From Escherichia phage vB_EcoS_CEB_EC3a: a stretch of DNA of 44,234 bases. The stretch is taken from sequence record NC_047812.1; one strand, 5' to 3'. The translations under genes were made by a program, and so were the position numbers. Below the pieces are notes generated by a model. It did no database searches. It was not told the DNA's origin and saw only the letters and a list, made by a program, of their open reading frames with translations. Positions 894 to 44,048 of the stretch are shown here, piece by piece (the first letter of the stretch is position 1; each line of letters opens with the position of its first letter).

Positions 894-1414
894 TGTTTGA
901 CTTTAAAGACAAACTAACAAGCGAGCAGATCATCAATATTGCACGTGCTGATGGTTATCCACTATTGCGAGTTGCAATCAATGCCAATGGATATCGTAGC
1001 TAAAATAAGTTCTGGGGTCAGCCTGATGCGTCAGAAGTATACAAAGATGAGGCGCTTGGGGTTCTGATTAAGCTAATCATGAAAATGGCAAGGAACGGCA
1101 AAGGAGTTGTCGGCATCAGATATCTATATGAAGGTGCTCGCAAGCTGAAACCATTTGCTGGGCGCGATGGAATGATGCTAGTGATCAAGGACAAGCTAAT
1201 TCCAGAGCTCGATAAGATGAATGTTACCTGTCTAATTGGAGATAAGGTTTACGTCAACCCTGCCTTGACGGATTTAAGCTGGCAACCAAACTTCAAAACT
1301 TACGAAGGTGAGCATGCTAGTAGACTACCATACCACTTGCGGTACAGTGAGGGTGAAGTGGAGATGGCTGTCGAGTTCTACCGGAAAGCTAAATCACTCC
1401 TGAACGGTGAATAG
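893..1414 (+). pseudogene. Internally deleted, nonsense-interrupted paralog of the 527-aa ATPase (40729..42312)
   Basis: One reading frame. MFDFKDKLTSEQIINIARADGYPLLRVAINANGYRS then TAA (1001-1003), then ...ARNGKGVVGIRYLYEGARKLKPF...CLIGDKVYVNP. These match the N-terminus (MFDFNEDKLSVEQ...RVAINANGYRQ) and C-terminus (GKNGKGVVGIRSLYEAARKVKPF...CLIGDKVYINP) of the full gene. The Walker core is missing. Confidence 0.7.
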
Positions 1415-1454
1415 CACGGATTGCTAAACAATGGATCGGGTAGTCAGCTATAAT
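1412..1454 (+). promoter_or_regulatory. Dyad-promoter module (TAGCACGGATTGCTA-22 nt-TATAAT)
   Basis: Core 1412-1426, 22-nt spacer, TATAAT 1449-1454, leader TACCACATCGACAAC. Confidence 0.65.
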
Positions 1455-1478
1455 TACCACATCGACAACAAAGAGGAA

Positions 1479-1685
1479 ATGAAGATGAAAACTATGATTA
1501 TCGAAGATTTCGCAGGTGACATCACTGAGGTGTCTGCTTCAGTATATTACGACGGCATCGTGAGCATTGACATTGACACGGATAACTTAGGCGATGAAAT
1601 TACTATGTCTCACTATACACCAGAGCAAGCGCGCAAACTGGCGGCGGCATTAATCATGGCGGCGGAAGAGTCAGAGAAGCAATGA
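1479..1685 (+). CDS. Hypothetical small early protein (68 aa)
   Basis: ORF 1431..1685 overlaps its own -10 box. ATG 1479 follows AAGAGGAA. Confidence 0.7.
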   Translation: MKMKTMIIEDFAGDITEVSASVYYDGIVSIDIDTDNLGDEITMSHYTPEQARKLAAALIMAAEESEKQ

Positions 1686-1698
1686 ATGAGAAATTATA

Positions 1699-1917
1699 AT
1701 GCAAGTATATACGAATAGTAATGGCGTAGAGTATTGTGTTGTTTACGGAGTGGTTCTTCGCACTGTTGGTGGCCTCGGGATCATCAACATTTCAGTGATC
1801 AAGCCTGAATCACTGGTGAAAGGAATCCAGGCCGGAATCTTCAGCTTTCACTCAACGCTGACGGCTAAGCAGTATGTTACCCTCGCCAACGCGGTTAAGT
1901 ACGGTTTTATCAAATAG
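1699..1917 (+). CDS. Hypothetical small early protein (72 aa)
   Basis: ORF track. The stop TAG is the first triplet of the next dyad module. Confidence 0.6.
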   Translation: MQVYTNSNGVEYCVVYGVVLRTVGGLGIINISVIKPESLVKGIQAGIFSFHSTLTAKQYVTLANAVKYGFIK

Positions 1918-1958
1918 CACTTTTTGTTAAAAAGGGGATTCATCCTGACTGGTGTAAT
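1915..1958 (+). promoter_or_regulatory. Dyad-promoter module, variant half-site (TAGCACTTTTTGTTA-23 nt-TGTAAT)
   Basis: Core 1915-1929, TGTAAT 1953-1958, leader CCCCACATCAACCAAAC. Confidence 0.45.
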
Positions 1959-2110
1959 CCCCACATCAACCAAACAAATGGAAGTTAAGTGACCATATAC
2001 GAACATAAATTCAGCAGTAGGGGTATTGATATGCTCCTGCACTATTTAGACGAAAAATACGCAAATCTCATGCTTAAGGCGCATGGTGGAACAATAACGA
2101 GGATTGAGAT

Positions 2111-2371
2111 ATGAGCAAGTACGACCGCGAGATTATTGGTATTGATGGCACAGTAACAACAGTAGATGTTTATCGCGTTCTTGATGCGTTCAGCGTATCT
2201 GACCCAGCCACTCAGCATGCGGTAAAGAAGATGCTTTGTATGGGGTTGCGTGGACACAAGGATTACATAACCGACCTTAACGACTCAATCGAGTCATTAC
2301 AGAAAGCCAAGGAGCTTTACGGGCAAAAGATGATTCATCAATCGGATAAATCAAATCTGCGTGGTAAATAG
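2111..2371 (+). CDS. Hypothetical early protein, DUF3310-like (86 aa)
   Basis: ORF track with SD AACGAGGA. The segment AVKKMLCMGLRGHKDYITDLNDSIESLQKA resembles the DUF3310 family by eye. Stop TAG lies in the next module. Confidence 0.65.
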   Translation: MSKYDREIIGIDGTVTTVDVYRVLDAFSVSDPATQHAVKKMLCMGLRGHKDYITDLNDSIESLQKAKELYGQKMIHQSDKSNLRGK

Positions 2372-2411
2372 CACGAATTGCTAAACCCTCTCCGCAGGGT
2401 TTTGTTATAGT
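2369..2411 (+). promoter_or_regulatory. Dyad-promoter module (TAGCACGAATTGCTA-22 nt-TGtTATAGT)
   Basis: Core 2369-2383, 22-nt spacer, extended -10 at 2403-2411. Confidence 0.7.
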
Positions 2412-2440
2412 TAGTTCACACCAAACGAGAGGAAAAAAAG

Positions 2441-2671
2441 ATGATTACAATTAACCTGTCAGAGAAAGATGCGTCAACACTCAAGCAGCTTCTTTCAGGA
2501 AATCCGGTGCACACTAATGTTTATAACTTTGGTGAAGTAGAAAGGGAGGTTATCGCACAAATAAACAACCAGCAATTCGACGTAAGTGACTTCGAAAGTT
2601 CTAGACAATACGAGGCGATGAGCGTCAATGCTGCATACCTGACCAACTGGGATAAGGCGACTAATAAATGA
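2441..2671 (+). CDS. Hypothetical small early protein (76 aa)
   Basis: ORF track; SD AACGAGAGGA upstream. Confidence 0.7.
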   Translation: MITINLSEKDASTLKQLLSGNPVHTNVYNFGEVEREVIAQINNQQFDVSDFESSRQYEAMSVNAAYLTNWDKATNK

Positions 2672-2994: not shown

Positions 2995-3088
2995 TTTTTT
3001 GATAAAATGATGCATCCTTAACGCCTCTTGGCAGCAGAAGGTGCTCGGTGGCACAATCAAGGTTTGCGAGATAATTAAAGAATACAAA

Positions 3089-3131
3089 TAGCACTAATTG
3101 CTAAACCATCATTGGGGTAATTTGTTATAGT
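3089..3131 (+). promoter_or_regulatory. Dyad-promoter module (TAGCACTAATTGCTA-22 nt-TGtTATAGT)
   Basis: Core 3089-3103, TATAGT 3126-3131. Confidence 0.7.
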
Positions 3132-3161
3132 TACCACACCCAAACTAACGAGGTTATAAGA

Positions 3162-3266
3162 ATGAGTGAATTAATTAAAACTATCGCGGACTATCCATTT
3201 GCTTCGCTTTTTCTTGCTCTTGCAATATATGAAATTGTAAAGATTATTGTAAAATGTATTAAATAG
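3162..3266 (+). CDS. Small hydrophobic peptide (34 aa, one predicted TM helix)
   Basis: Hand-translated MSELIKTIADYPFASLFLALAIYEIVKIIVKCIK. SD AACGAGG; stop TAG in the next module. Below the ORF-track size cutoff. Confidence 0.6.
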   Translation: MSELIKTIADYPFASLFLALAIYEIVKIIVKCIK

Positions 3267-3306
3267 CACGAATTTCTAAAACATTATCGGGGTATCTTGC
3301 TATAGT
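3264..3306 (+). promoter_or_regulatory. Dyad-promoter module (TAGCACGAATTTCTA-22 nt-TGcTATAGT)
   Basis: Core 3264-3278, TATAGT 3301-3306. Confidence 0.65.
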
Positions 3307-3336
3307 TACCCCATCAAAACGAAACAGGAAGCAGAA

Positions 3337-3693: not shown

Positions 3694-3833
3694 GTTTCAC
3701 TGAATACGTGATCGCATGCGAGCGACTGGTCTTTGATATGAAAACCTTCCACTGGTTCATCATTAAGGATTTAATCAAGCCTTATAAGCAGGGCGTTACG
3801 CCGGAGCGGTTTGTTAAGTCATTTTATAAATAG
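3690..3833 (+). CDS. Hypothetical small protein (47 aa)
   Basis: ATGA overlap with the upstream ORF; stop TAG is in the next module. Confidence 0.5.
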   Translation: MSFTEYVIACERLVFDMKTFHWFIIKDLIKPYKQGVTPERFVKSFYK

Positions 3834-3873
3834 CACGAATTGCTCAACGCAGTCGACACGGATGGCATATAAT
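3831..3873 (+). promoter_or_regulatory. Dyad-promoter module (TAGCACGAATTGCTC-22 nt-TATAAT)
   Basis: Core 3831-3845, TATAAT 3868-3873. Confidence 0.65.
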
Positions 3874-3903
3874 CACCTTACCAACACAACGAGAGATTGA
3901 GAC

Positions 3904-4044
3904 ATGAAGAACACATATAAATTTTATTATGAAGAAGAGTTTGTGGATGATTTAATTTACTTCAATGAGAAATATGGCGACGAGTTCGTCTGCAATGGGG
4001 ATGAAATGGAAGTGACTGCAAGCTTCAGTAGGGGGTTGAATTAA
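3904..4044 (+). CDS. Hypothetical small acidic protein (46 aa)
   Basis: Hand-translated MKNTYKFYYEEEFVDDLIYFNEKYGDEF...; SD AACGAGAGA. Confidence 0.55.
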   Translation: MKNTYKFYYEEEFVDDLIYFNEKYGDEFVCNGDEMEVTASFSRGLN

Positions 4045-4661: not shown

Positions 4662-4736
4662 GCTCTGCTAGCTCAACAGGACAGCAGCAACGACCTTCTA
4701 AGTCGTAGGTTACTGGTTCGAATCCAGTGCGGAGCG
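4662..4736 (+). tRNA. tRNA-Arg (anticodon UCU)
   Basis: Hand-folded cloverleaf. 7-bp acceptor GCTCTGC/GCGGAGC, anticodon stem ACGAC/GTCGT with loop CTTCTAA, T arm ACTGG-TTCGAAT-CCAGT, CCA encoded at 4737-4739. Confidence 0.85.
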
Positions 4737-4745
4737 CCAAATTAA

Positions 4746-4844
4746 CGTCGCGTTGCTAATGTTGGTTAAAGGGTGGAGCTTATACCTCCATAAAGCAATC
4801 TCCAGATAAGAGATGTAACGCAGGTTCGATTCCTGCCGCGACGA
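4746..4844 (+). tRNA. Aberrant 99-nt tRNA-like gene (possible Ile anticodon UAU or GAU; may be a pseudo-tRNA)
   Basis: Perfect 7-bp acceptor CGTCGCG/CGCGACG, canonical T arm GCAGG-TTCGATT-CCTGC, CCA encoded. The D region is poor, and two competing anticodon hairpins exist (TGGAG-CTTATAC-CTCCA and ATCTC-CAGATAA-GAGAT). Confidence 0.5.
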
Positions 4845-5680: not shown

Positions 5681-7246
5681 ATGTCTTTAGTATGGGAAGA
5701 AATGACCATTCAGGAAAAGATGGCCGTTAAGGCGATATCAGAACACAGCTTCGAGGGTTTCCTTCGTTGCTGGTTCCAGATTACACAAGGCGAGCGATAC
5801 ATCCCTAACTGGCATCACAAGTACTTGTGCAGAATCATTGATGAGATTATCGCAGGAGATCGCAAGGACACCATCATTAACATAGCACCAGGCAGCGGAA
5901 AGACGGAAATTGCCTCAATCCACTTCCCGGCCTATTCGATGGTTAAGCTTAGGAAGGTGCGCAACCTTAACATCTCTTTTGCTGACTCCCTGGTTAAGCG
6001 TAACTCGAAGCGAGTACGTGACCTTATCAAGTCTCAAGAATTTCAGTCACTCTGGCCATGCAAATTTGGCACCTGCAAAGACGATGAGCTTCAGGTTCTT
6101 GATGAGAGTGGCAAGGTTAGATTTGAGTCAATATCAAAGGCGGCTGGAGGCCAGATTACTGGCGCTCGCGGTGGGTACATAACCGAAACATACAGCGGAG
6201 CCGTTCTTTTGGATGACTTTGACAAACCCGCAGATATGTTATCAGCAGTGTACCGCTCGAATAATCACGTAATGCTTAAAAATACGATTCGCTCACGTCG
6301 AGCCAGTTCTGTAAAAGGCAAAGCGACACCAATCATTTCGATACAGCAGCGGCTTCACGTCAATGACTCAACCTATTTCATGATGGAAGGCGGCATGGGT
6401 ATCGAATTCGATTTGATTAAGATACCAGCATTAGTTACTGAGGATTACCTAGACACACTACCTGAATGGATTAAAGAACAGTTTGAAGAGGATGTCCTTA
6501 GTAGTGAATACATAGAGCGCGATGGAGTAAGGTATTACAGCTACTTCCCTAAAAAGGAGTCAGTCAATGACTTGGTTGCGATGTGGGATAGTGACCCTTA
6601 CACCTTCCTTAGTCAGTATCAACAAGAACCAGTAGCTCTAGGTGGCAACCTTATTAACGTAGATTGGTTCCAGCGCCTTAGCGACACGTTCAGACCTCCA
6701 GCTAAGTACGATTATAGATTTATAACTTGCGATACAGCTATGACTACAAAAAGTTATAGTGACTTCTCTGTCCTTCAATTGTGGGGTTATAAAGATGCTA
6801 AGATTTACCTTATTGACCAGCGCAGGGGGAAATGGGAAGCGCCCGAGTTAGAGGCAGAGTTAATCGATTTCGAGAAGAAATCAAGGGCAACCAGTCAATC
6901 GGATGGTATCCTCCGAAAGATTATCATCGAGAAGAAAGCATCTGGAATCGGACTCATTCAATCAGCAAGTCGAGTCATGAGAACGCCAGTGGAACCTTAT
7001 GTTCCTGATAATGACAAGTTAACAAGGGTGATGAGTGCGCTGCCACAGATTAAGGCTGGTAACGTAGTTCTTCCTGAGTCTGCGCCGTGGTTAAGCGGAT
7101 TGCTTACTGAGATTGCGGCATTTACCGCTGACGACAGCCATAATCACGACGACCAAATTGATACCATGACAATGGCTATCAACCTGGTTCTGAACATTGC
7201 GGATGATCCTAAGTCGAGACTGATGCGCATAGCGGGAATGAAATAG
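5681..7246 (+). CDS. terL: Terminase large subunit
   Basis: 521 aa; Walker A PGSGKTE, Walker B-like VLLDDFDK, C-terminal nuclease-like acidic motifs (HDDQIDT). Position upstream of the portal gene. Confidence 0.9.
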   Translation: MSLVWEEMTIQEKMAVKAISEHSFEGFLRCWFQITQGERYIPNWHHKYLCRIIDEIIAGDRKDTIINIAPGSGKTEIASIHFPAYSMVKLRKVRNLNISFADSLVKRNSKRVRDLIKSQEFQSLWPCKFGTCKDDELQVLDESGKVRFESISKAAGGQITGARGGYITETYSGAVLLDDFDKPADMLSAVYRSNNHVMLKNTIRSRRASSVKGKATPIISIQQRLHVNDSTYFMMEGGMGIEFDLIKIPALVTEDYLDTLPEWIKEQFEEDVLSSEYIERDGVRYYSYFPKKESVNDLVAMWDSDPYTFLSQYQQEPVALGGNLINVDWFQRLSDTFRPPAKYDYRFITCDTAMTTKSYSDFSVLQLWGYKDAKIYLIDQRRGKWEAPELEAELIDFEKKSRATSQSDGILRKIIIEKKASGIGLIQSASRVMRTPVEPYVPDNDKLTRVMSALPQIKAGNVVLPESAPWLSGLLTEIAAFTADDSHNHDDQIDTMTMAINLVLNIADDPKSRLMRIAGMK

Positions 7247-7286
7247 CACAAATTGCTAAACACTAAAGCCACGGATGGCGTATAGT
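7244..7286 (+). promoter_or_regulatory. Dyad-promoter module (TAGCACAAATTGCTA-22 nt-TATAGT)
   Basis: Core 7244-7258 contains the terL stop; TATAGT 7281-7286. Confidence 0.65.
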
Positions 7287-7315
7287 TACTTCACACAAAC
7301 GAGAGGAGAAGAAAG

Positions 7316-14278: not shown

Positions 14279-14286
14279 AACACAAA

Positions 14287-14306: not shown

Positions 14307-14312
14307 ATTGCA

Positions 14313-25524: not shown

Positions 25525-25563
25525 TTTGAATTCCTCATTAAGTTGTTTCGTTTCGATGTGGTA

Positions 25564-25606
25564 ATAGTATCGAATCCTTGCGATCAGTGTTTAGCAATTA
25601 GTGCTA
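25564..25606 (-). promoter_or_regulatory. Dyad-promoter module (minus strand) driving lipoprotein and RBP
   Basis: Core 25592-25606, 22-nt spacer, TACTAT (plus-strand ATAGTA 25564-25569), leader TACCACATCGAAACGAAAC. Confidence 0.65.
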
Positions 25607-26251
25607 TTTCTTTTCGAGTAACATCTTGATGTCAATGCCGAGATTATTTTCAATCAATCCAGTCAGTGCATCCGTCTTTTCTTTAAGGGCAAAACACTGA
25701 GCTTCATACTTAAATCTTTCCTCCATCTCGTCAGAGCGACTAACCCAGCACTGGCGAGCCTCGCAAGCCAGCATGTCGAGTTTTTCATCGGTATTCTTAT
25801 CCATGAGTAAGATCTCATTTATTCTTTGCTCTGCAACAATGCGCTGACTAAGGTGTGCATTTTGCGCATTAGCCACACCAAGCATCATTCGCACTTCTTT
25901 TAACTCATCAATGCTTACCATCTGGCTGATTACTTCTTCTTGTTTTTTAACTAATTGCTCAAGCTCATGAAGTCGACGGATAACTTTGTGTCGAAGCACG
26001 ACGCTGTAGCCAGTGATTAGCGTTTCGGTGAGTTCCTTGTTGAGTAAAATCTCAGATGTATAGCCTCGATTGTCTGTAAGTAGTTGATAATCATAATGAC
26101 CCAAATCTGGGGCATCGTTATAATGTAACAATTCATTGATCATTTCCTTTGTGTCGCGAACGACGTGATCATGACGTTTCCCGGTTAACTCTGCGATTTC
26201 CTTTGTGCTCATCATGGTTTTTGGTTGTTCTTTGTACAATTCAATGTTCAT
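25604..26251 (-). CDS. Rha-family phage regulatory protein
   Basis: N-terminus MSTKEIAELTGKRHDHVVRDTKEMI matches the Rha signature. ATG 26251 is preferred because SD AAGAGAG lies 6 nt upstream. Stop TAG is in the next module. Confidence 0.7.
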   Translation of the reverse strand: MNIELYKEQPKTMMSTKEIAELTGKRHDHVVRDTKEMINELLHYNDAPDLGHYDYQLLTDNRGYTSEILLNKELTETLITGYSVVLRHKVIRRLHELEQLVKKQEEVISQMVSIDELKEVRMMLGVANAQNAHLSQRIVAEQRINEILLMDKNTDEKLDMLACEARQCWVSRSDEMEERFKYEAQCFALKEKTDALTGLIENNLGIDIKMLLEKK

Positions 26252-26322
26252 TTTCATCTCTCTTTGGTTTTGTGATACGAAATTTTCGTAGCACAAGCAG
26301 CACCATTGCCGCCATGCGCCTA

Positions 26323-26365
26323 AATATAACTAAAGATAGTCAGTTGTCTTTAGCAATTAGTGCTA
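26323..26365 (-). promoter_or_regulatory. Dyad-promoter module (minus strand) driving rha
   Basis: Core 26351-26365, 22-nt spacer, TATATT (plus-strand AATATA 26323-26328). Confidence 0.6.
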
Positions 26366-26379
26366 TTTATCGCCAATTT

Positions 26380-28017: not shown

Positions 28018-28018
28018 A

Positions 28019-28061
28019 TAGCACGAATCGCTAAAGACAAAATTAAAAGGTGGGGTATGAT
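28019..28061 (+). promoter_or_regulatory. Dyad-promoter module (TAGCACGAATCGCTA-22 nt-TATGAT)
   Basis: Core 28019-28033, TATGAT 28056-28061. Confidence 0.55.
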
Positions 28062-28090
28062 TACCCAATCAACAACGAACGAGGTTAAAG

Positions 28091-32054: not shown

Positions 32055-32078
32055 TGTGTAAAGTCTCCATTTGTAAAG

Positions 32079-32108
32079 TAGCACTAATTGCTAAAGTGGA
32101 TTGTATCA
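32079..32108 (-). promoter_or_regulatory. Fibre-gene promoter (TGaTACAAT) with the TAGCA dyad placed at about +1 to +15
   Basis: On the minus strand: TGATACAAT (32100-32108), 6 nt, then TAGCAATTAGTGCTA (32079-32093). This is operator-over-start geometry, unlike the other copies. Confidence 0.5.
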
Positions 32109-33065: not shown

Positions 33066-33541
33066 TTGCTTAACCCGTGATTTTCGTGAAAGTTGTATTT
33101 TCTCTCTGCTTCAATTCTTACTTTATACGCCTGCTCTGGAGTATCGAAGTTCCCAAGGTGTAGCTGCTTACCGTCAACCTTGATGTGAGCCTTAAATTTT
33201 CCGTGATTTAGCTTTGCCACTCCACAATAACCAGTTGTTGATAAAACGCTAAGCTTGCAATTTCTTGAGTTACCTTGATTTGTTGTTACTCTTAGGTTTT
33301 CTATTCTGTTATCTAATTTGTTATGGTTTATATGATCAATGTAGTCGCCATTTTTAAGTTCTCCATTAAACATCTCCCACACAACTCTATGTACATAAGT
33401 CCTAAAGCCATTAACAGACACTTTGTAATAGCCAGATGTAGATAGTGAGTTGCACTCATCGCCAACCTTAACACGTCTTGCAGTGCTAATCTTCCAATGC
33501 AATTTGCCATCTACATAGTAAAAATAATCATGCCAGTTCAT
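33062..33541 (-). CDS. HNH homing endonuclease with AP2 DNA-binding domain
   Basis: YIDHINHNKLDNRIENLRVTTNQGNSRN (HNH) and GKFKAHIKVDGKQLHLGNFDTPEQA (AP2). AT-rich. ATGA overlap with the primase start. Confidence 0.85.
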   Translation of the reverse strand: MNWHDYFYYVDGKLHWKISTARRVKVGDECNSLSTSGYYKVSVNGFRTYVHRVVWEMFNGELKNGDYIDHINHNKLDNRIENLRVTTNQGNSRNCKLSVLSTTGYCGVAKLNHGKFKAHIKVDGKQLHLGNFDTPEQAYKVRIEAERKYNFHENHGLSK

Positions 33542-33554: not shown

Positions 33555-33587
33555 ATAAAAAAAGGATGTACCGATTATGGCACATCC
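33555..33587 (-). terminator. Intrinsic terminator
   Basis: Minus strand: GGATGTGCC-ataatc-GGTACATCC followed by T9. Confidence 0.7.
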
Positions 33588-33593
33588 AATTAT

Positions 33594-34067
33594 TTACTCT
33601 TTAGCTTTTCGTGCGGCTTCGTTAGCTGCCTTGATCTTTCGCCATGAGCGACACTCTGGTTTAGTTGCTAGCTCAGCCTCAGTAACAACACGCAGCATAT
33701 GACGCTTCTTGCAACGTAGAGTTAGCGGTTTCCCGTTACCGTCGAATTGCAGATCTGGTCGGCAGAATGTAGCGCGAAAACCTTCTCCATTTCGCTTATA
33801 GTAGTTGTGCGACAGCTGGGCGCCGCGCGCAGAAATCATCCCACGCTTAAACCATTCTTCTACAGCCTGAGGTGTCACCTTTAACTGCTTTGCGATATTT
33901 GCCTTTGTGCCGAAGAAATCAAGAACAATCTCCAACCGTGCGCGCAACCCAGCCCTTACCTCGTCTTTTAAAACGTAGTAGCCTGAAGGTCGTTTCCGTT
34001 GTTTTTTGTCTTCAGTACGAATGGTTCCGTTGTTCCCGTTAATTGTTCGCTTGTCTACTGCATTCAT
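33594..34067 (-). CDS. Putative HTH DNA-binding protein (157 aa)
   Basis: HTH-like segment NIAKQLKVTPQAVEEWFKRGMIS; basic termini. Confidence 0.55.
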   Translation of the reverse strand: MNAVDKRTINGNNGTIRTEDKKQRKRPSGYYVLKDEVRAGLRARLEIVLDFFGTKANIAKQLKVTPQAVEEWFKRGMISARGAQLSHNYYKRNGEGFRATFCRPDLQFDGNGKPLTLRCKKRHMLRVVTEAELATKPECRSWRKIKAANEAARKAKE

Positions 34068-34080
34068 TTCATTACCTCAA

Positions 34081-34122
34081 TAGCATTTTTTGTTAAAAGT
34101 CATTCCGATTTAATGTTATTAT
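34081..34122 (+). promoter_or_regulatory. Dyad-promoter module, variant (TAGCATTTTTTGTTA-21 nt-TATTAT) for helicase
   Basis: Core 34081-34095, TATTAT 34117-34122. Confidence 0.5.
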
Positions 34123-34168
34123 TGTACTCAATTAAACGCTACAAGACAATTTTTATAGGAATTTAGAT

Positions 34169-36163
34169 ATGTTGCCTATCGAGAAGCTGGTTGCCAACTT
34201 TGATAAAGAAAGAATTAAACAGATTCAGAAAGATTACCAGTTTGGCGAGATAACCCCTTACGAGTTCCAATGCGTTACATTTGATGCAATTGGGAAGGCT
34301 ATTGGCAAGTATGAGGCTCCATTTATCGCAGACCTCTCGGTATCTGCTGGTAAGACAATCATCCTGGCTATGATTGGTAAGCGCATGGAGCAGCTTGGGC
34401 TTCCTTATATGGTTCTTTCTCGCCAGTCAGAAATTATCAGCCAGAACTCAGAAGAGCTTCGTAATTTCGGCATCCGTAACAGCGTCTATTGCGCTGGCCT
34501 TAACGTTAAATCAGTTTATTACCCAACCATAGTTGCCAGCGAGGGTACGGCTGCTAACGGATTGTTTAAGGGGCTTGGTGACTATGTTCCGGCAGTTATC
34601 GCTATCGATGAATGTCACATGCTTGACACTATGGATATAGTTGAAGCAGAGGAGAACGAAGAAACATTTGAGCAAATGAGCACAAAGAAAGGAGAGATGG
34701 TTTTCAAGGATGGCGTTAACACTGGATTAATCGGTACTGGTCGTTCGCAATACACTCTAATCATTACAGAGATGAAACGACGTTGTCGTGAAAAGTACGG
34801 TCGGGAGCTTCGTATATTCGGCCTTACTGGTAGCCCATATCGTAACAATGACCATATCGTCGTTAGCAATCCAAACATCCGTGGGTTCTGGCGCAAAACA
34901 GTGATCCAGGTCCCAACCAATTACCTTGTTGATTTGGGATTCGTGGTACCTACTGTTTACGGTGAGGTAGGTGATTTGGGTTATGACCTTGCGGAGTTTG
35001 CGCCGGATGGCAGTGATGGTGTGAAAGATTTCAGCAAGAAAGAAATGGATGCTATGCAGGAAAAAATTCATCAAAACCAGTCCATGACTCAAAAGATTAT
35101 GCAGTTCGCAGCCAAGTTTATGGAAACTCGTAACGCAGCACTAGTAACTTGCTCAGGCAAGCGGCATTGCGAGGAAGCAGCCGCGGCGCTTCCTGATGGT
35201 GTAACCTGGGCTATAGTAACTGACTCTACTGGTGAGAAAAAGCGTCGTGAGATTCTTTCTGACGCAGCTGAAGGTAAGTATAAATTCATCTTTCAGATTG
35301 GTTGCCTCACAACCGGCGTGAACGTTCCGACATGGGACACGTCAATAATTCTTCGCAAGGTTGGTAGCATCACGTTACTGATTCAGCTTTTGGGGCGAGG
35401 TATGCGAATTCTTAAGAAGAAGCACAAGGAAATGGGAATGGTTAAGGATGATCACGTGGTGCTGGACTTCGCTGGTACTCTTGATGACATGGCGGAATTG
35501 TACTTTGACCCAATCATAGAGGAAGTGCAGGACCAGAAATTTAAGTATTCACGCAAAGTCGGCGATGAGCCAAGAATATGTCCGGCCTGTAGTTACGAGA
35601 ACTCTCCTTTTGCTCGTCGTTGCAATAACGTAATTGACGGGAAGCGTTGTGAGCATTTTTTTACATTTCGCTTATGTGAAGATATAGAGGACCCGCAGAC
35701 AAAAGTTACTATTAAGAAAGGTTGTGGTGAAAAGAATGATATCGCCGCTAAAAACTGCCGCTGCTGCGGAGAAATGCTTATTGACCCTAACGCAAAATTG
35801 TCTGGAAAGATGTATCGAAAAGGTGATTGGTTGAGAGTTTACGGATTCAGCATTGGATTAACAAAGAACCAAACTGGAATCGTTGCTCGCTATGAAATCA
35901 TGTCGCATAGTGGGGATAGGTTTGTTGCTTACGAAACTTTCTTCCCAGAGAGTGACCATCGAGTTTGCTCTGTAAAATGGAAAGCATTTTGCTCGAGTCA
36001 CATAGAGAACAGGACTGAGGCTTTTAGAATTGGCAGATTGCGTAATGCTAAGATGATTATGACTAATGCTCACCTTTTCCGTGCGCCATTAAGGATTACA
36101 CACCGTAAGAACCAGAAGTCTCAAGATATTATCGCAAACAAATCATTTACTATGGAAGACTGA
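34169..36163 (+). CDS. SF2 (DEAD/DEAH-like) ATP-dependent helicase with C-terminal zinc ribbons
   Basis: Walker A SAGKT, DECH box (AIDECH), TGSP, QLLGRGMR. The C-terminus has CPAC...C...C and CG...CRCC. Confidence 0.85.
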   Translation: MLPIEKLVANFDKERIKQIQKDYQFGEITPYEFQCVTFDAIGKAIGKYEAPFIADLSVSAGKTIILAMIGKRMEQLGLPYMVLSRQSEIISQNSEELRNFGIRNSVYCAGLNVKSVYYPTIVASEGTAANGLFKGLGDYVPAVIAIDECHMLDTMDIVEAEENEETFEQMSTKKGEMVFKDGVNTGLIGTGRSQYTLIITEMKRRCREKYGRELRIFGLTGSPYRNNDHIVVSNPNIRGFWRKTVIQVPTNYLVDLGFVVPTVYGEVGDLGYDLAEFAPDGSDGVKDFSKKEMDAMQEKIHQNQSMTQKIMQFAAKFMETRNAALVTCSGKRHCEEAAAALPDGVTWAIVTDSTGEKKRREILSDAAEGKYKFIFQIGCLTTGVNVPTWDTSIILRKVGSITLLIQLLGRGMRILKKKHKEMGMVKDDHVVLDFAGTLDDMAELYFDPIIEEVQDQKFKYSRKVGDEPRICPACSYENSPFARRCNNVIDGKRCEHFFTFRLCEDIEDPQTKVTIKKGCGEKNDIAAKNCRCCGEMLIDPNAKLSGKMYRKGDWLRVYGFSIGLTKNQTGIVARYEIMSHSGDRFVAYETFFPESDHRVCSVKWKAFCSSHIENRTEAFRIGRLRNAKMIMTNAHLFRAPLRITHRKNQKSQDIIANKSFTMED

Positions 36164-36164: not shown

Positions 36165-36584
36165 ATGCAAATTACAGACAAAGAAGATTACATTGAGTTT
36201 TACCCAGGCCCGGTTAAGTCGTGTCCGAAAGAGGATGACGAACAAATCTTTTGCTCTGATTGGGTTAAGTATAACTACCCGGAGATGGTATTTTTCCACT
36301 GCGTAAATGAGGGGAAGAAAACCATTGGACAGGCAAGAAAGGACCAGGCTAAAGGGCTCCTTAAAGGCGTGTCAGACTGCATGTTTCTTATTCCCGAGTC
36401 TCTGAGAGGCAAATACCCTTTCGGAGCTATAGAGCTGAAGAGGGCTGGCAAAACTCAGGCTAGCCCAGTCAGTGACGAACAGAAGTCTTTCCTTAAAAGC
36501 GTAAGAGAATCAGGCGGTTTCGCTGGTGTTGCCTACGGGCGCGAGGGTTTTCTTGCGGCATTCAAAGAAATGATTTCAAAATAG
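36165..36584 (+). CDS. VRR-NUC domain nuclease
   Basis: GVSDCMFLIP...GAIELKRAGK (D...E-x-K) and size typical of VRR-NUC. Stop TAG is in the next module. Confidence 0.75.
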   Translation: MQITDKEDYIEFYPGPVKSCPKEDDEQIFCSDWVKYNYPEMVFFHCVNEGKKTIGQARKDQAKGLLKGVSDCMFLIPESLRGKYPFGAIELKRAGKTQASPVSDEQKSFLKSVRESGGFAGVAYGREGFLAAFKEMISK

Positions 36585-36624
36585 CACGAATTGCTAAAGA
36601 CGATTTTAAAAGATGCGATATAGT
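36582..36624 (+). promoter_or_regulatory. Dyad-promoter module (TAGCACGAATTGCTA-22 nt-TATAGT)
   Basis: Core 36582-36596, TATAGT 36619-36624, leader TACCACATCGAAACGAAAC. Confidence 0.7.
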
Positions 36625-36662
36625 TACCACATCGAAACGAAACACATAGAGAGAGAAACAAA

Positions 36663-36857
36663 ATGGCTACTATCTACACTGAAAAACTCTACAAGTCACG
36701 CAAAACTGGTTATGAATATGAATTAGCAATCACCGCTGAGGGTTATATTCTTGATGATGGCGAAGGTTACGCATTCGAAGTTAGCCCGACTTACAAAGAT
36801 GACCTGGAAACTGTTAAAAACGCATTCGGCGAAAAATTTGATGAGGTATCGGAATAA
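36663..36857 (+). CDS. Hypothetical protein (64 aa)
   Basis: ORF track; SD GAGAGAGA. Confidence 0.7.
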   Translation: MATIYTEKLYKSRKTGYEYELAITAEGYILDDGEGYAFEVSPTYKDDLETVKNAFGEKFDEVSE

Positions 36858-37450: not shown

Positions 37451-37702
37451 ATGTTGGGTTTAGATTTTCAGCCAGGGCATTACGATTTAGTATATGGGCA
37501 AAGTGGAGCTAAGTTTAGGGCGATACCTATTGCTGACTGGTTACCTCCTGATTATGTGGATGTTAATGCAAAAACTAAAGACGGGAAGTGGGTTCAGATT
37601 TACTACTCCCCAGCATGCGGAAACCTTTGCATGACTGACCTTGATCAGAAATTAGCAATTAGTGCGGAAGTTATCGACTACTGGTTGAAAGAAGTTGAAT
37701 GA
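37451..37702 (+). CDS. Hypothetical protein (83 aa)
   Basis: ORF track; SD AAGGA. Confidence 0.65.
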   Translation: MLGLDFQPGHYDLVYGQSGAKFRAIPIADWLPPDYVDVNAKTKDGKWVQIYYSPACGNLCMTDLDQKLAISAEVIDYWLKEVE

Positions 37703-37785: not shown

Positions 37786-38916
37786 ATGGCAACTGCAAAA
37801 ATTACCAACGAAGAACTGCGCGAAGAACTGGCAAATGGCATGACCAACAAGGCAATCGCAGAGAAGTACGGAATGAACATTCGCAACGTTGAATTGCGTC
37901 GTAGTAAATTGGCTAAACAAGGTGAGGGGCATGGCCGTGATGTTAGTAACCTAATCCCTCAAGGTTACGCCGTTAAGGGCGTTTCTAGCTTAATTGGTGC
38001 TGATGGTGAGATCAAGCAACAGTGGGTAAAGTCTGACATTGACAAGGAGAAGCAAGAAGAAATGATGCTTCAGGCAATTCAGGCGATGACCGATGAGTTA
38101 CCACGCGAAAAAGCGAAGCCACTCAGTACGTCATCATTTGAGGACACTCTGAGCCTTTACCCTGTATTCGACCTTCACATTGGCGCAATGGCTCACCATG
38201 CTGAATGTGGCGAGAACTACAGCACTGAAATCGCCGAGCGAGTCCTTAATAGTTATTTTGATTACGCCGTTGCAAAGGCACCAAACTCCAAGAAAGCTGT
38301 ATTGCTGATTGGTGGTGACTTCCTTCACTCTGACGGAATGGAGGCGGTAACCCCAACCAGTCGTCATATTCTTGATCAGGATAGTCGATACCACAAATTG
38401 GTTTACGTAGCAGTGAGAGCGACGCGAAGAGCAATTAGTCGGATGCTTGATAAGCACGCTGAGGTTGAGGTTCAGATTATTCCTGGAAACCACGATCTTT
38501 CAGGAATGATTTGGTTGCGTGCGGCAATGGCCGCTTTCTATATGGATGAGCCTCGAGTTAATGTTGATGCGTCACCTGCTGCGCTTCACGTAACGCAGTT
38601 TGGAAAGACGCTACTTGGTTACTGTCATGGACATGAACTCAAAAAGCCTGATACCAGACTATCAACACTGGCTCGTGACCATCGTAAGGCTTTTGGTGAG
38701 TCTGAGTATGTTTACACTCATAGTGGCCATTACCACCATCAAACGATTACAGAGGGTAACTTAGGTATCGATGAGTCTCATGGTCAGCTTGGTTGTAAGG
38801 ATGCGTACAGTGCCAACGGTGGTTATCGCTCTTATCGCCAGGCGTCTGTAATCATCTACAGCCCTAAATTCGGAGAGATTGGTCGATTCACTTGCCGTCC
38901 CGAAATGTTTAGTTAA
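37786..38916 (+). CDS. N-terminal HTH fused to a calcineurin/Mre11-type metallophosphoesterase
   Basis: HTH-like MTNKAIAEKYGMNIRNVELRRSKL. Phosphoesterase motifs DLHIG, GGDFLHSDG, GNHD, GHxH-like CHGHE and SGHYHH. Confidence 0.7.
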   Translation: MATAKITNEELREELANGMTNKAIAEKYGMNIRNVELRRSKLAKQGEGHGRDVSNLIPQGYAVKGVSSLIGADGEIKQQWVKSDIDKEKQEEMMLQAIQAMTDELPREKAKPLSTSSFEDTLSLYPVFDLHIGAMAHHAECGENYSTEIAERVLNSYFDYAVAKAPNSKKAVLLIGGDFLHSDGMEAVTPTSRHILDQDSRYHKLVYVAVRATRRAISRMLDKHAEVEVQIIPGNHDLSGMIWLRAAMAAFYMDEPRVNVDASPAALHVTQFGKTLLGYCHGHELKKPDTRLSTLARDHRKAFGESEYVYTHSGHYHHQTITEGNLGIDESHGQLGCKDAYSANGGYRSYRQASVIIYSPKFGEIGRFTCRPEMFS

Positions 38917-38959
38917 TAGCACTTTTTGCCTAAAGAATGCCGTAGAAATGCGGCATAAT
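38917..38959 (+). promoter_or_regulatory. Dyad-promoter module, variant (TAGCACTTTTTGCCTA-21 nt-CATAAT)
   Basis: Core 38917-38932 (one extra base), CATAAT 38954-38959, leader TACCACATCGAAAC. Confidence 0.5.
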
Positions 38960-39000
38960 TACCACATCGAAACTAGACAAACAAAACGAGGAAACACAAA

Positions 39001-42312: not shown

Positions 42313-42342
42313 TACTTCTCTCCGTGTTGTTTCTGAGCGGCC

Positions 42343-42385
42343 ATTATATCAACGACCGCTTATAATTCATTATCAATTTGTGCTA
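42343..42385 (-). promoter_or_regulatory. Dyad-promoter module, variant half-site (TAGCACAAATTGATA-22 nt-TATAAT)
   Basis: Core 42371-42385, TATAAT (plus-strand ATTATA 42343-42348). Confidence 0.6.
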
Positions 42386-42386
42386 T

Positions 42387-42806: not shown

Positions 42807-42967
42807 TATTTTATTCTCTTCGTTGTCCACATAAATTTGTTTGGTACTGATTTGCGCACGATGCGCACCACAATCTTATCAACCTTCTGAACTAAACCGT
42901 AAATCTTCCCATCAAGTGACGCGCGGTACACTGCCTCTTCCATTGCGTCGTAAAAGTTGTCGAACAT
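42806..42967 (-). CDS. Hypothetical small protein (53 aa)
   Basis: Hand-translated MFDNFYDAMEEAVYRASLDGKIYGLVQKVDKIVVRIVRKS...; coupled at both ends. Confidence 0.55.
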   Translation of the reverse strand: MFDNFYDAMEEAVYRASLDGKIYGLVQKVDKIVVRIVRKSVPNKFMWTTKRIK

Positions 42968-43146
42968 TAAATCGCCACCTTAACCTCAAACTCTTCAATA
43001 AGGTAATAATCAGGAACATAACCAAGAGTTATATCGATATCTAAGAGTCTATTCTTTTCAAATTCAGCTAGTTCCTCTGTATCAAAAACACCAAAGATTT
43101 CAAAGCCATCATAGTTAGTATAACCATTGAGTAAGTAAACTTTCAT
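42967..43146 (-). CDS. Hypothetical small protein (59 aa)
   Basis: Hand-translated MKVYLLNGYTNYDGFEIFGVFDTEELAEFEKNRLLDIDIT...; SD GAGAGGAG and a module promoter. Confidence 0.6.
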   Translation of the reverse strand: MKVYLLNGYTNYDGFEIFGVFDTEELAEFEKNRLLDIDITLGYVPDYYLIEEFEVKVAI

Positions 43147-43175
43147 TTTTTATCTCCTCTCGTTTCGATGAAGTA

Positions 43176-43218
43176 ACTATATAACATCCGTGGCGGTGAG
43201 TTTTAGCAATTCGTGCTA
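43176..43218 (-). promoter_or_regulatory. Dyad-promoter module (minus strand)
   Basis: Core 43204-43218, 22-nt spacer, TATAGT (plus-strand ACTATA 43176-43181), leader TACTTCATCGAAACGAGAGG. Confidence 0.7.
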
Positions 43219-43364
43219 TTTCGTGCCTTCTCAATCGCCTTCAGCACAATCTCGTGAGACTCAAGCAAGTCCTCGTTGAACCAGTCTCCGCAAGGCCAGC
43301 CCTTTCCGCTATAGGCACTTATGACCTCAAGATCGAAATAATTTATCTCAGATGGTAGAAGCAT
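43203..43364 (-). CDS. Hypothetical small protein (53 aa)
   Basis: Hand-translated MLLPSEINYFDLEVISAYSGKGWPCGDWFNEDLL... Stop is the TAA of the module GCTAAA. TGATG coupling upstream. Confidence 0.5.
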   Translation of the reverse strand: MLLPSEINYFDLEVISAYSGKGWPCGDWFNEDLLESHEIVLKAIEKARNSTNC

Positions 43365-43603
43365 CACTTCACCTCGTCAAAAGTTGCAATTCCAGGAATA
43401 AACATTCCAACCTTCCAGCCTGCAATGGAAATCCATCCAGAATTGTGCTTGTGCGGTCGCTCAGCGCCATTAATCACCCACTCGTTCGGGATTGTCTTCC
43501 CGTTAATGATTAGTGGCTCAGCGTCGTATACATAGCCTTTTACGAATGGCGTTAAGACTTTCTTGTCGGTACTGGTGATGCAATTAGTGCAGCGAATTTT
43601 CAT
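43364..43603 (-). CDS. Hypothetical protein (79 aa)
   Basis: ORF track. Confidence 0.65.
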   Translation of the reverse strand: MKIRCTNCITSTDKKVLTPFVKGYVYDAEPLIINGKTIPNEWVINGAERPHKHNSGWISIAGWKVGMFIPGIATFDEVK

Positions 43604-43788
43604 AATTGAACCTCGACCTCATCCTCGAAAACTGTAGCTGGCTTACCAACTGAGTTAATAATGTCAAATGATTTAAGTTCAGTATCCCTATCAATAACAT
43701 CGTAGACCTTGCCAATGAAAAGGCCATAATCAATTTCATCTGACCCGTCCATGTCAATATCTTTAAACTTAACTAACTTGATTTTCAT
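43600..43788 (-). CDS. Hypothetical protein (62 aa)
   Basis: ORF track; ATGA coupling; SD GAGGA. Confidence 0.65.
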   Translation of the reverse strand: MKIKLVKFKDIDMDGSDEIDYGLFIGKVYDVIDRDTELKSFDIINSVGKPATVFEDEVEVQL

Positions 43789-43798
43789 ATCTCAATCC

Positions 43799-43978
43799 TC
43801 AAACAAATGGCAGGCATTCTGCGCATCCAAGCCCATCACAGCACAGAAATTCATCTTCTGACTGGAATTGCCTGGCAATGTCAATATCAATCTTGTCGAG
43901 CAGAACAAGTGCAGTGTAAATCTCATTCAACCCAATCAGTGCGCATTCGTGGCGTAACTCGTCTTTATCAATCTTCAT
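43799..43978 (-). CDS. Hypothetical Cys-rich small protein (59 aa)
   Basis: Hand-translated MKIDKDELRHECALIGLNEIYTALVLLDKIDIDIARQFQSEDEFLCCDGLGCAECLPFV; SD ACGAGGAG and a module promoter. Confidence 0.6.
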   Translation of the reverse strand: MKIDKDELRHECALIGLNEIYTALVLLDKIDIDIARQFQSEDEFLCCDGLGCAECLPFV

Positions 43979-44004
43979 ATCTATCTCCTCGTTTTGATGA
44001 GTTA

Positions 44005-44048
44005 ACTATATCCTCCATGACCCACAATGTCTTTAGCAAAAAGTGCTA
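44005..44048 (-). promoter_or_regulatory. Dyad-promoter module (minus strand) for the leftward early operon
   Basis: Core 44034-44048 (TAGCACTTTTTGCTA on minus), 23-nt spacer, TATAGT (plus-strand ACTATA 44005-44010). Confidence 0.65.

Follow-up and report, generated by a model that had tools for sequence, protein, structure and literature searches.

T1-like bacteriophages have almost no recognisable sigma-70 promoters, and the 21-nucleotide (nt) repeats found in their genomes have stayed unexplained since the first genome descriptions. The present analysis deals with such a repeat in the genome of Escherichia phage vB_EcoS_CEB_EC3a (sequence record NC_047812.1), the whole stretch of 44,234 nt being referred to here as the window. 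The gene order in the window is that of phages Rtp and T1, and its first 20 kb show 93% identity to Escherichia phage vB_EcoS_UALMA_PCEc3 (hereafter PCEc3) and 86% identity to phage DTL, which is classified in the Drexlerviridae, Braunvirinae, and for which a part of the genome was compared. The window phage is a member of the Drexlerviridae (Braunvirinae, Rtp/T1-like).

The repeat, ATAGCACnnnTTGYTAAA, is present in the window in 18 copies that had been listed in an earlier note on this DNA, each of which carries the motif at the position given there, and in one degenerate 19th copy. It is the first part of a larger block, in which aaATAGCACnnnTTGYTAAA is followed by a spacer, a TATAGT or TATAAT hexamer, a C-rich discriminator, a CA start, a CA-rich leader (ATCGAAACGA), a Shine-Dalgarno sequence and an ATG. 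The description of this block in the earlier note as a phage-wide recurring promoter module, consisting of the repeat, a -10 box at a fixed distance and a leader, stands as a prediction. The modules are listed below; the 20-base-pair (bp) element that contains the repeat is termed the marbox, after the host regulatory site with which it is compared in a later section, the gap is the distance from the end of this element to the -10 hexamer, and the lengths of the encoded products are given in amino acids (aa) for start codons or as coordinates for open reading frames (ORFs).

1411..1461 (+): marbox 1411-1430, ATAGCACGGATTGCTAAACA; 18-bp gap; TATAAT 1449-1454; predicted +1 at about 1461; ATG 1485 (66 aa); the TAG of the marbox is the end of the upstream ORF
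1914..1965 (+): marbox 1914-1933, ATAGCACTTTTTGTTAAAAA; 19-bp gap; weak -10 box TGTAAT 1953-1958; -10 region between the inverted-repeat arms GGGGATT/AATCCCC
2368..2418 (+): marbox 2368-2387; 18-bp gap; TGT-TATAGT 2406-2411; ATG 2441 (76 aa)
3088..3138 (+): marbox 3088-3107; 18-bp gap; TGT-TATAGT 3126-3131; ATG 3162 (34 aa)
3263..3313 (+): marbox 3263-3282 (TTTCTA variant); 18-bp gap; TGC-TATAGT 3301-3306; ATG 3337 (59 aa); -10 box between the arms GGGGTA/TACCCC
3830..3880 (+): marbox 3830-3849 (TTGCTC variant); 18-bp gap; TATAAT 3868-3873; ORF 3904-4044
7243..7293 (+): between terL and the portal gene; marbox 7243-7262; 18-bp gap; TATAGT 7281-7286; ATG 7316 (110 aa); the TAG of the marbox is the terL stop codon
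14312..14362 (+): tail region, directly 3' of a terminator at 14284-14303; marbox 14312-14331; 18-bp gap; TATAGT 14350-14355; ORF 14389-14637
25557..25607 (-): ahead of an 80-aa protein and a membrane protein; marbox 25607-25588; 18-bp gap; TACTAT 25569-25564; ATG 25524; the TAG of the marbox is the end of the Rha-like gene
26316..26366 (-): ahead of the Rha-like gene; marbox 26366-26347; 18-bp gap; TATATT 26328-26323
28018..28068 (+): ahead of an Erf-like recombinase gene; marbox 28018-28037 (TCGCTA variant); 18-bp gap; TATGAT 28056-28061; ATG 28091
32078..32097 (+): orphan marbox, GTAGCACTAATTGCTAAAGT, between the primase terminator (32126-32143) and the ribosome-binding site of the tail-fibre gene
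33567..33617 (-): degenerate 19th module, within the 3' end of the gp23-like gene; marbox-like 33617-33598, GCCGCACGAAAAGCTAAAGA; 18-bp gap (22 nt from TTGYTA); CATAAT 33579-33574; ATG 33541 (HNH endonuclease, then primase)
34080..34129 (+): ahead of a 664-aa helicase; marbox 34080-34099, ATAGCATTTTTTGTTAAAAG; 17-bp gap; TGT-TATTAT 34117-34122; ATG 34169
36581..36631 (+): marbox 36581-36600; 18-bp gap; TATAGT 36619-36624; ORF 36663-36857; the TAG of the marbox is the end of the upstream VRR-NUC gene
38916..38966 (+): before the lysis region; marbox 38916-38935 (TTGCCT variant); 18-bp gap, which holds the hairpin GCCG..CGGC; CATAAT 38954-38959; ATG 39001
42336..42386 (-): ahead of a 527-aa DNA helicase; marbox 42386-42367 (TTGATAAT variant); 18-bp gap; TGA-TATAAT 42348-42343; ATG 42312; -10 box between the arms GCGGTC/GGCCGC
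43169..43219 (-): marbox 43219-43200; 18-bp gap; TATAGT 43181-43176; ATG 43146 (59 aa)
43998..44049 (-): marbox 44049-44030; 19-bp gap; TATAGT 44010-44005; ATG 43978 (59 aa)

Architecture of the repeated module

A search of the window for TAGCA-N5-TGCTA with at most one mismatch gave 20 matches against 1.87 expected, a number reached in none of 100 shuffles; two of the 20 are chance-like, and the copy at 38917 is recovered at two mismatches. The spacer between TTGYTA and the -10 box is 22 nt long in 14 of the 17 listed copies that have a -10 box, one more than the 13 of 17 counted by hand in the earlier note, whose range of 21-23 nt for the others is upheld (21 nt in the copy at 34080, 23 nt in those at 1914 and 44049). 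Measured from the end of the 20-bp element, the distance is 18 bp in the same proportion of copies (14/17) and 17 or 19 bp in the other three. Every module with a -10 box has GCAC distal and TAAA proximal to it, the element being aimed at the -10 box and the gene downstream. The orphan at 32078-32097 has no -10 box at 18 bp and a weak TATAAA at 20 bp (24 nt from TTGYTA); it is aimed against both of the flanking minus-strand genes and is found at the same place and in the same orientation in T1 (34902) and Rtp (33762). A scan of other T1-like genomes, as proposed in the earlier note, returned the same element and the 22-nt spacing in T1 (15 of 19 modules), Rtp (15 of 18), TLS (11 of 15) and Klebsiella phage KP36 (11 of 14), which represent four other lineages of the family, and in PCEc3 (14 of 17), and a counterpart of the degenerate 19th module was found in T1, TLS and KP36.

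The element itself has been described before. In phage TLS, a 21-nt direct repeat, aaATAGCACnnnTTGnTAAAA, was reported in 21 copies that are oriented with transcription, precede start codons by about 76 nt and fall into subgroups with a central AAA, TTT or GAA, and T1, Rtp and Rogue1 were noted to have similar repeats; the function was left open, the options put forward being stoperators, sites for enhancer binding and UP-like elements (PMC11447400). The TLS direct repeats (DR1-DR18) and the repeat of the window are the same element, with agreement in orientation, copy number (19 in the window) and distance to the start codon (71-89 nt in the window, mostly 73-74). The fixed distance to a -10 box, the match to the marbox and the host factor are absent from the TLS paper and are added here (PMC11447400). 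The repeat has thus already been published as an unexplained element, and the marbox reading, as far as the literature examined shows, has not been proposed before; a literature search found no paper linking the marbox to Drexlerviridae phages.

A conservation profile was constructed from 73 modules pooled from five genomes. It consists of a conserved block at positions 0-18, an unconserved gap, a TAtAaT -10 box and a C-rich discriminator. G4, C5 and G13 are invariant or nearly so and position 7 is C in 70 of the 73 modules; positions 8 and 9 vary freely, position 10 is restricted to A or T, and at position 14 there are 46 modules with C and 24 with T. Within the -10 hexamer, T is found at -12 in 64 modules and A at -11 and T at -7 in all 73, counts that are partly biased by the way the -10 boxes were chosen; outside the hexamer, 59 modules have G at -14 and 61 have A at the predicted +1. 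The positions where a -35 hexamer would be expected read AAAaCn, with no recognisable -35. That TTGCTA, 22 nt from the -10 box, cannot serve as an ordinary -35 was correctly argued in the earlier note, the spacing being beyond the range of sigma-70; no conserved -10 box is found 17 bp after TTGCTA, and the ordinary -35 reading was rejected.

The same profile speaks against the dyad operator that the earlier note had seen in the repeat. The symmetry comprises only 5+5 bp (TAGCA and TGCTA), and A1, C7, T11, A17 and A18 have no mirror partner. When the positions are mirrored, the invariant G4 stands opposite position 14, C7 opposite T11 and A1 opposite A17; position 14 is divided between C and T, and the T form (TTGTTA) breaks the dyad in roughly one module out of three. 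The orientation relative to the -10 box is strict and never varies. The repeat is an asymmetric, oriented element and not a dyad operator.

Several known kinds of element were compared with the repeat and do not fit it. A sigma-54 promoter was rejected: its consensus, TGGCAC-N5-TTGC, has GG and GC exactly 10 bp apart and a start about 12 nt after GC; the repeat, TAGCAC-N3-TTGC, has AG instead of GG, and its GC is 2 bp too close. A MerR-type long-spacer promoter, the TTGC-N6-TTGC site of lambda CII and the T4 MotA box do not fit in position or spacing. A weak intrinsic terminator formed by the dyad itself is implausible, with a 5-bp stem and no run of T. UP elements are A/T-rich, lie at -40 to -60, are read in the minor groove by the C-terminal domain of the RNA polymerase alpha subunit (alpha-CTD) and have no invariant G or C; the repeat has G4, C5, G13 and C7.

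Correspondence with host class II marbox promoters

The marbox of enterobacterial hosts is given by the Grainger laboratory as 5'-gcannwwntgnnaaa-3', a non-palindromic site with a specific orientation (PMC12052159), and in an earlier paper from the same laboratory as 5'-GCAHWWWWTGYYAAA-3', with MarA binding as a monomer in asymmetric complexes (PMC6900184). In the window, 12 exact matches to GCAnnWWnTGnnAAA were found where 0.97 would be expected, and each of them is a copy of the repeat. The consensus GCAHWWWWTGYYAAA has nine exact and five one-mismatch matches, as compared with 1.42 expected at a tolerance of one mismatch. With the classical marbox 19-mer, which is reportedly AYnGCACnnWnnRYYAAAY (Martin et al. 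1999), 15 matches with at most one mismatch were obtained against 1.03 expected, 13 of them repeat copies, of which six are perfect. The variable positions of the repeat are the degenerate positions of the marbox (8 and 9 free, 10 A or T, 14 C or T), and the marbox of the mar promoter, read forward as ATGCCACGTTTTGCTAAATC, agrees with the phage repeat of the TTT class in 15 positions out of 18.

In class II marbox promoters a forward marbox overlaps the -35 region, forward sites being clustered near -41; these promoters have no recognisable -35 hexamer and a canonical -10 box, and RamA at micF is likewise placed at about -41 (PMC12052159, PMC10268841, PMC8811837). In the class II structures with SoxS or Rob at micF, sigma region 4 is described as being moved off the -35 (cited in PMC10268841). 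The class II activator position deduced in the earlier note is borne out by the present alignment, in which a -10 hexamer at -12 to -7 places the 20-bp site at -50 to -31 with its centre at -40.5. The corresponding Escherichia coli K-12 promoters are micF, with ACAGCACTGAATGTCAAAAC, 18 bp and TAGAAT, where the annotated RNA 5' end lies 8 nt past the hexamer; nfo, with ATCGCATAAACCACTACATC, 18 bp and TATCAT; and inaA, with ACGACACGTTTCATTAAGAT, 18 bp and TATAGT, the -10 boxes of nfo and inaA being our own assignments by eye from the sequence. fumC has a perfect marbox, and its -10 box could not be placed by eye. On the predicted -10 boxes, the modules of the phage have the same geometry as the class II promoters of the host, base pair for base pair. 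The statement in the earlier note that no cognate factor can be assigned from sequence is not supported, the marbox consensus being matched position by position and the -10 distance of micF, inaA and nfo being equalled.

The host class II promoters micF, inaA, nfo and fumC and the phage modules thus share a 20-bp asymmetric consensus, placed forward at about -41 with an 18-bp gap, no -35 and a canonical -10 box. They differ in that the phage sites are far nearer to the consensus and occur in about 19 copies in the 44 kb of a virulent phage, with binding and activation being predictions from sequence, and in that the phage modules share a leader and often a hairpin around the -10 box. Sequence and exact geometry of the promoters that respond to MarA, SoxS and Rob, bacterial activators for stress and antibiotic resistance, together argue that the phage probably uses these host proteins for most of its transcription units. 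The modules are accordingly read here as putative class II promoters activated by host MarA, SoxS or Rob (RamA in Klebsiella), a reading to which we assign a probability of about 0.65.

Under this reading, ATAGCACnnnTTGYTAAAnn would be a near-consensus site for MarA, SoxS and Rob, monomeric activators of the AraC family that have a pair of helix-turn-helix (HTH) motifs. The element, lying forward from about -50 to -31, would take the place of the -35 hexamer, its GCAC (-47 to -44) being read by one HTH and its TAAA end (-36 to -33) by the second. Once in place, the activator would touch sigma-70 region 4 and the alpha-CTD and recruit host RNA polymerase to a good -10 box that has no -35, and transcription would begin at the CA about 7 nt past the -10 box and proceed through the CA-rich leader and the Shine-Dalgarno sequence. 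Rob is abundant in unstressed cells; it would be the constitutively present candidate, to which MarA, SoxS and RamA may add under stress or in resistant mutants. Rob senses signals directly (PMC12052159). Binding, activation, the choice among the paralogous activators and the start sites are the inferred parts of the reading.

A phage-encoded activator of the same kind was sought in two ways. MarA and SoxS were compared by phmmer --max with the six-frame ORFs of at least 30 aa of seven T1-like genomes (the window, PCEc3, DTL, T1, Rtp, TLS and KP36), and nothing was found below E=0.5. A tblastn search with MarA, the query being validated by a 95% match to a Salmonella fragment, gave 137 matches in 50,697 phage records; no T1-like genome is among the 30 of the 137 matches listed, and no Klebsiella appears in the organism breakdown shown, although the repeat is carried by 519 Klebsiella phages. 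A phage-encoded MarA/SoxS homologue was thus rejected, none being found by phmmer in the seven genomes or among the tblastn matches listed. A phage that has no MarA-like activator of its own would therefore borrow that of the host. The earlier note had named three phage HTH proteins as candidate factors, followed by a host factor. The Rha-like protein (Phage_pRha, anti-repressor PHROG) drops out, being absent from T1, Rtp, TLS, KP36, PCEc3 and the examined part of DTL; the gp16-like protein is a metallophosphatase, with an HTH seen only as a sub-threshold GerE-like match (E=0.044); and the gp23-like protein is conserved and has a Cro-type single-HTH fold that is not MarA-like. The host factor, the last option in that list, is the best of the candidates.

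Other systems share parts of this arrangement. The middle promoters of T4 (MotA box and AsiA) likewise have an activator box in place of the -35 ahead of a normal -10 box. The MotA box has its centre at -30, some 12 bp away from the -10 box, and is read by a phage protein after sigma has been remodelled; in contrast, the box described here lies at -41, with no phage factor evident. CRP and FNR at -41.5, and lambda cI at OR2 for PRM, occupy the same place relative to the -10 box, with a presumed contact to sigma region 4 and alpha. Their sites, however, are true palindromes, bound by dimers and functional in either orientation, whereas the phage element is asymmetric and oriented. The PeSL elements of T4-type phages and the intergenic repeats of halovirus HF2 (PMC8707807) are likewise promoter repeats that border small genes and show signs of cassette exchange; they differ in sequence and polymerase factor, the phage repeat here being a predicted host activator site.

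If the class II marbox reading is correct, it offers a concrete and quickly testable mechanism. Phage gene expression would rise in bile, in salicylate, under oxidative stress and in marR or ramR resistant mutants, and phage development would be tied to the regulon behind intrinsic and clinical multidrug resistance. There would be consequences for phage-antibiotic combinations and for the choice of therapeutic Klebsiella and E. coli phages, and the modules would supply compact, strong, activator-dependent promoter-terminator cassettes.

Distribution of the module and competing explanations

The module is widespread. BLAST with a 50-nt probe of the two main repeat variants matched 1103 phage records at 7745 places; among the Drexlerviridae, more than 1000 sequenced genomes have the element, including those of the Klebsiella weberviruses, a group employed in phage therapy. 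Most of the hosts named belong to the Enterobacteriaceae, with Klebsiella (519) and Escherichia (369) ahead of Shigella, Citrobacter, Enterobacter, Salmonella and Cronobacter. Twenty-one records labelled 'Campylobacter' that carry the repeat are T1-like genomes, by size (about 47 kb) and content, and full sets of modules are also present in Vibrio phage Vc1 (MT360682) and Pseudomonas phage Motto (ON843697), both typical T1-like genomes of 45% guanine plus cytosine. Several of the Vc1 modules are more degenerate than their counterparts in Motto.

Whole modules, with marbox, 22-nt spacer, -10 box, leader, Shine-Dalgarno sequence and ATG, were also found in three large myoviruses unrelated to the T1-like phages: Klebsiella phage CP-p-KP-21068 (Straboviridae; PV864763, 109287-109360), Enterobacter phage phiEap-3 (Straboviridae, Slopekvirus; KT321315, 56888-56962) and Escherichia phage Mt1B1_P17 (Phapecoctavirus). 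The leader resembles ATCGAAAC in both Straboviridae copies and is divergent in Mt1B1_P17. At least 22 records (Phapecoctavirus, Vequintavirus) retain the rV5-like locus; in four aligned rV5-like records, one of them a Vequintavirus, the marbox and the 22-nt spacing are kept and the downstream gene differs, and in the Vequintavirus Mangalyan the gene downstream of the module has been swapped. At the Straboviridae loci the small upstream gene is T1-like, with 70% identity to KP36 gp79 and 46% to a T1 ORF, and the downstream gene is not. These patterns suggest that phage families have exchanged cassettes, the module forming the junction. On balance we lean, with a little better than even confidence, towards the broader proposition that most transcription units of the Drexlerviridae are wired to host MarA/SoxS/Rob/RamA and that a marbox promoter of about 70 nt, often fused to a terminator-like hairpin, would serve as a portable cassette border, moving from one phage family to another, unrelated one.

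A number of points weigh against activation by host marbox proteins. The -10 boxes and +1 positions are predictions, and a literature search on T1-like phages found no data on binding, transcription or start sites for any of them. Cells that are not under stress contain little MarA and SoxS, and Rob needs inducers for most of its activity; yet T1-like phages grow fast on ordinary laboratory strains, and either Rob by itself or the basal output of the -10/TG promoters would need to be enough. Some copies, namely the orphan at 32078 and the T1 copies 8362 and 25021, which adjoin start codons, have no correctly spaced -10 box and are unexplained by a promoter model; at the start codons of terS and the tail-tip gene, the copies in T1 and TLS have no such box. 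The repeat is stricter than the host marboxes, including at T2 and A3, where the consensus is free, and in its A-rich flanks, and this extra strictness could be the mark of another protein. TAGCA-N5-TGCTA resembles a dimer site with 10-bp spacing, and a conserved Cro-type regulator with a canonical promoter is a natural candidate for a phage activator. Modules in phages labelled as infecting Vibrio and Pseudomonas (Vc1 and Motto) also count here; because such non-enterobacterial host labels, including those of the 'Campylobacter' records, are doubtful, the comparison of host ranges is undecisive.

The Cro-type regulator and the promoters that do not carry a marbox are the following.

354..382 (+): ordinary sigma-70 promoter at the left end, TTGACT-17-TATTAT; no marbox; counterpart of TLS P01
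33594..34067 (-): gp23-like regulator gene, 157 aa, Cro/cI-type HTH; kept in T1, Rtp, TLS and KP36
34121..34149 (-): ordinary sigma-70 promoter of the gp23-like gene, TTGTCT-17-TACAAT; counterpart of TLS P57

Only three sigma-70-like promoters, P01, P51 and P57, were reported in TLS, of which P57 drives the regulator gene (PMC11447400). A canonical promoter scan of the window gave no excess over shuffles. Under the host-activator reading, the promoters at 354-382 and 34149-34121 would fire without an activator. The -10 box of the helicase marbox promoter (TATTAT 34117-34122) and the divergent -10 box of the regulator (TACAAT 34126-34121) overlap by 2 bp, and occupancy of one promoter should therefore exclude the other; the marbox at 34080-34099 lies within the 5' untranslated region of the gp23-like gene. 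The arrangement at 34080-34149 looks like a mutually exclusive switch. At the left end, a palindrome at 345-372 (GAATTACACTTG / CACGTGTAAGTC) overlaps the -35 of the promoter at 354-382 and could be the operator of the Cro-like regulator; no comparable palindromes were found at 34060-34175 or 26290-26430.

The AlphaFold2 model of the gp23-like protein (mean predicted local distance difference test, pLDDT, 87.3) matches all-alpha single-HTH proteins of the Cro/cI type, namely Xfaso-1 Cro, N15 Cro and HigA. No MarA, Rob or AraC protein is among the 50 best structure matches, and a hidden MarA-like fold was rejected; a sequence search of the PDB returned only a P22-type Cro (E=0.75). The alternative that survives best is built on this protein, which would be made early from its sigma-70 promoter and bind TAGCA-N5-TGYTA as a dimer near -41, activating about 18 promoters in the class II manner as an early-to-middle switch, with the likeness to the marbox being coincidental. 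Its conservation in T1, Rtp, TLS, KP36 and 823 T1-like records, a modelled fold that is that of dimeric operator-binding Cro/cI proteins, its possession of one of the few canonical promoters, and half-sites 10 bp apart from centre to centre are all consistent with such a role, as is the setting of its gene, where a repeat in the 5' untranslated region and a -10 box overlapping that of a divergent repeat promoter are typical of autoregulated switches. However, a symmetric dimer does not need the strict orientation observed, the invariant positions are asymmetric with the dyad broken in about one-third of the modules, and chance would have to account for the marbox match, the pattern of degeneracy and the 18-bp spacing shared with micF, inaA and nfo. 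The module is moreover kept in Straboviridae and rV5-like phages; in the search with the gp23-like protein, 40 of 40 rows sampled evenly from the 823 records, down to the weakest match, were T1-like genomes or fragments, with no rV5-like or Straboviridae genome among them. The occurrence of the module in myoviruses, with no gp23-like protein in the sampled rows, favours a factor supplied by the host, with the caveat to this argument from portability that the myovirus modules may have arrived by cassette transfer. We regard the gp23-like dimer as unlikely.

Less probable still, and in our view quite improbable, is an activator-independent element that is read by RNA polymerase itself, being UP-like or resembling a displaced -35, and that boosts extended -10 promoters. 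The site at -50 to -31 does overlap the proximal UP subsite, its flanks are A-rich, TTGCTA is -35-like and the option is on the list of the TLS authors (PMC11447400); G at -14, present in most modules of the profile, is such that the -10 box may work alone. The invariant GCAC and TG are nevertheless foreign to the UP consensus, a -35 at 22 nt lies outside the sigma-70 range, and the strict 18 bp to the -10 box is the behaviour of an activator site.

Sites with a negative or decoy function, either stoperators for a phage repressor, as raised by the TLS authors (PMC11447400), or a sponge that titrates MarA/SoxS/Rob away from host defence and envelope genes, are very improbable. A sponge would be well served by some 19 near-consensus sites in each genome and by the many genome copies present during replication, and the orphan copies that have no -10 box (32078; T1 8362 and 25021) fit a role in binding only; but the phages are virulent, no repressor or lysogeny module was seen, stoperators sit in transcribed regions and not at -41, and neither a decoy nor a roadblock needs a fixed distance to the -10 box or a fixed orientation.

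It is about equally improbable that the repeats are primarily cassette-boundary or recombination sequences, comparable to the promoter-stem-loop repeats of T4-type phages, in which case modules of 70 nt would shuffle small genes inside one phage genome or from phage to phage and the promoter would merely travel along: upstream genes do end in or against the element in 15 of the 19 modules, the Straboviridae upstream gene is T1-like and the downstream gene is not, the gene behind the same rV5-like module differs and BLAST matches break at the module, but base-specific conservation, orientation and exact -10 spacing are left unexplained, and the boundary role need not compete with promoter function, with which it is compatible as something that follows from it.

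Hairpins, gene ends and neighbouring features

The coupling of the modules to the preceding genes is close. In 11 of the 19 modules (e.g. 1412-1414, 7244-7246, 36582-36584 and 25604-25606) the upstream gene has the TAG of the marbox (positions 2-4) as its stop codon; in three it stops at a TAA abutting the marbox and in one at the TAA at positions 15-17. With a stop codon within or against the marbox, these modules therefore begin exactly at the end of the previous gene, with no spare base.

The non-conserved spacer of the earlier note is confirmed in so far as the 73-module profile has no conservation in the gap; it is incomplete in that the gap often holds one arm of an inverted repeat specific to the module. 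Inverted repeats pairing about -24..-18 with about -7..-1 were found in 39 of 86 modules, as compared with 162 of 1022 (16%) cross-module controls. They place the -10 hexamer in the loop, as at 3289-3312, 1918-1965 and 42336-42360 of the window, and are found also in T1, TLS and KP36. By permutation, the arms of one module pair better with each other than with those of other modules (p<0.0005 in T1 and TLS, p=0.002 in KP36, p=0.05 in the window). The arm sequences are module-specific (GGGGTA/TACCCC, GGGGAAT/ATTCCCC, AAGGCC/GGCCTT, GCGGTC/GGCCGC), and the mismatches inside the arms are G-T in five cases and A-C in none.

Some of the hairpins are full intrinsic terminators, lying in the gap or with the -10 box in the loop, among them those T1 sites that are annotated as terminators. 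In the window, a terminator-like hairpin at 2383-2402 (+) lies in the gap, its stem starting from the AAA of the marbox and its T-tail running into the -10 box, and a terminator at 33587-33564 (-) has the -10 box CATAAT in its loop and the predicted start in its right arm. The hairpins of the modules may mark the 3' ends of upstream transcripts or give insulation against them. Such a hairpin would form only in transcripts coming from upstream, ending or stabilising them, and transcripts started at the module would begin past the right arm and so escape it. A long inverted repeat, GTTAACCCGC / GCGGGTTTAAC, surrounds the -10 box of the host nfo promoter (NC_000913.3, about 2250770-2250830) and recalls the phage hairpins; the likeness may be a coincidence.

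Two further marbox-like sites of the window lie in coding DNA, with no -10 box at the right distance. The first, ATGGCACAAATGATCAAAA at 20864-20882 (+), is at the start codon of the gene for a 1141-aa tail-tip protein; T1 and TLS have a copy of the repeat just 5' of the homologous tail-tip gene. The second, GCACTAATTGCTAAT at 37651-37665 (-), is antisense to a small ORF and is present in DTL as well.

The HNH endonuclease gene at 33062-33541 (-) is inserted between the regulator and primase genes; it and the Rha-like gene at 25604-26296 (-) each have a marbox module of their own ahead of them, in the manner of morons. An Rfam scan of the window gave nothing beyond two tRNA matches, in the region of 4662-4739 and 4746-4844 (+). 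A tRNA-Arg(TCT) was called there by both ARAGORN and Rfam; a second tRNA-like sequence of 99 nt (41 bits) was called by Rfam only and may be insertion-bearing or degenerate, its PCEc3 counterpart being annotated as a 102-nt tRNA-Ile. Near the left end, 5' of the first canonical promoter, the window carries at 98-150 (+) an AT-only microsatellite made up of (AT)n followed by (TAT)n.

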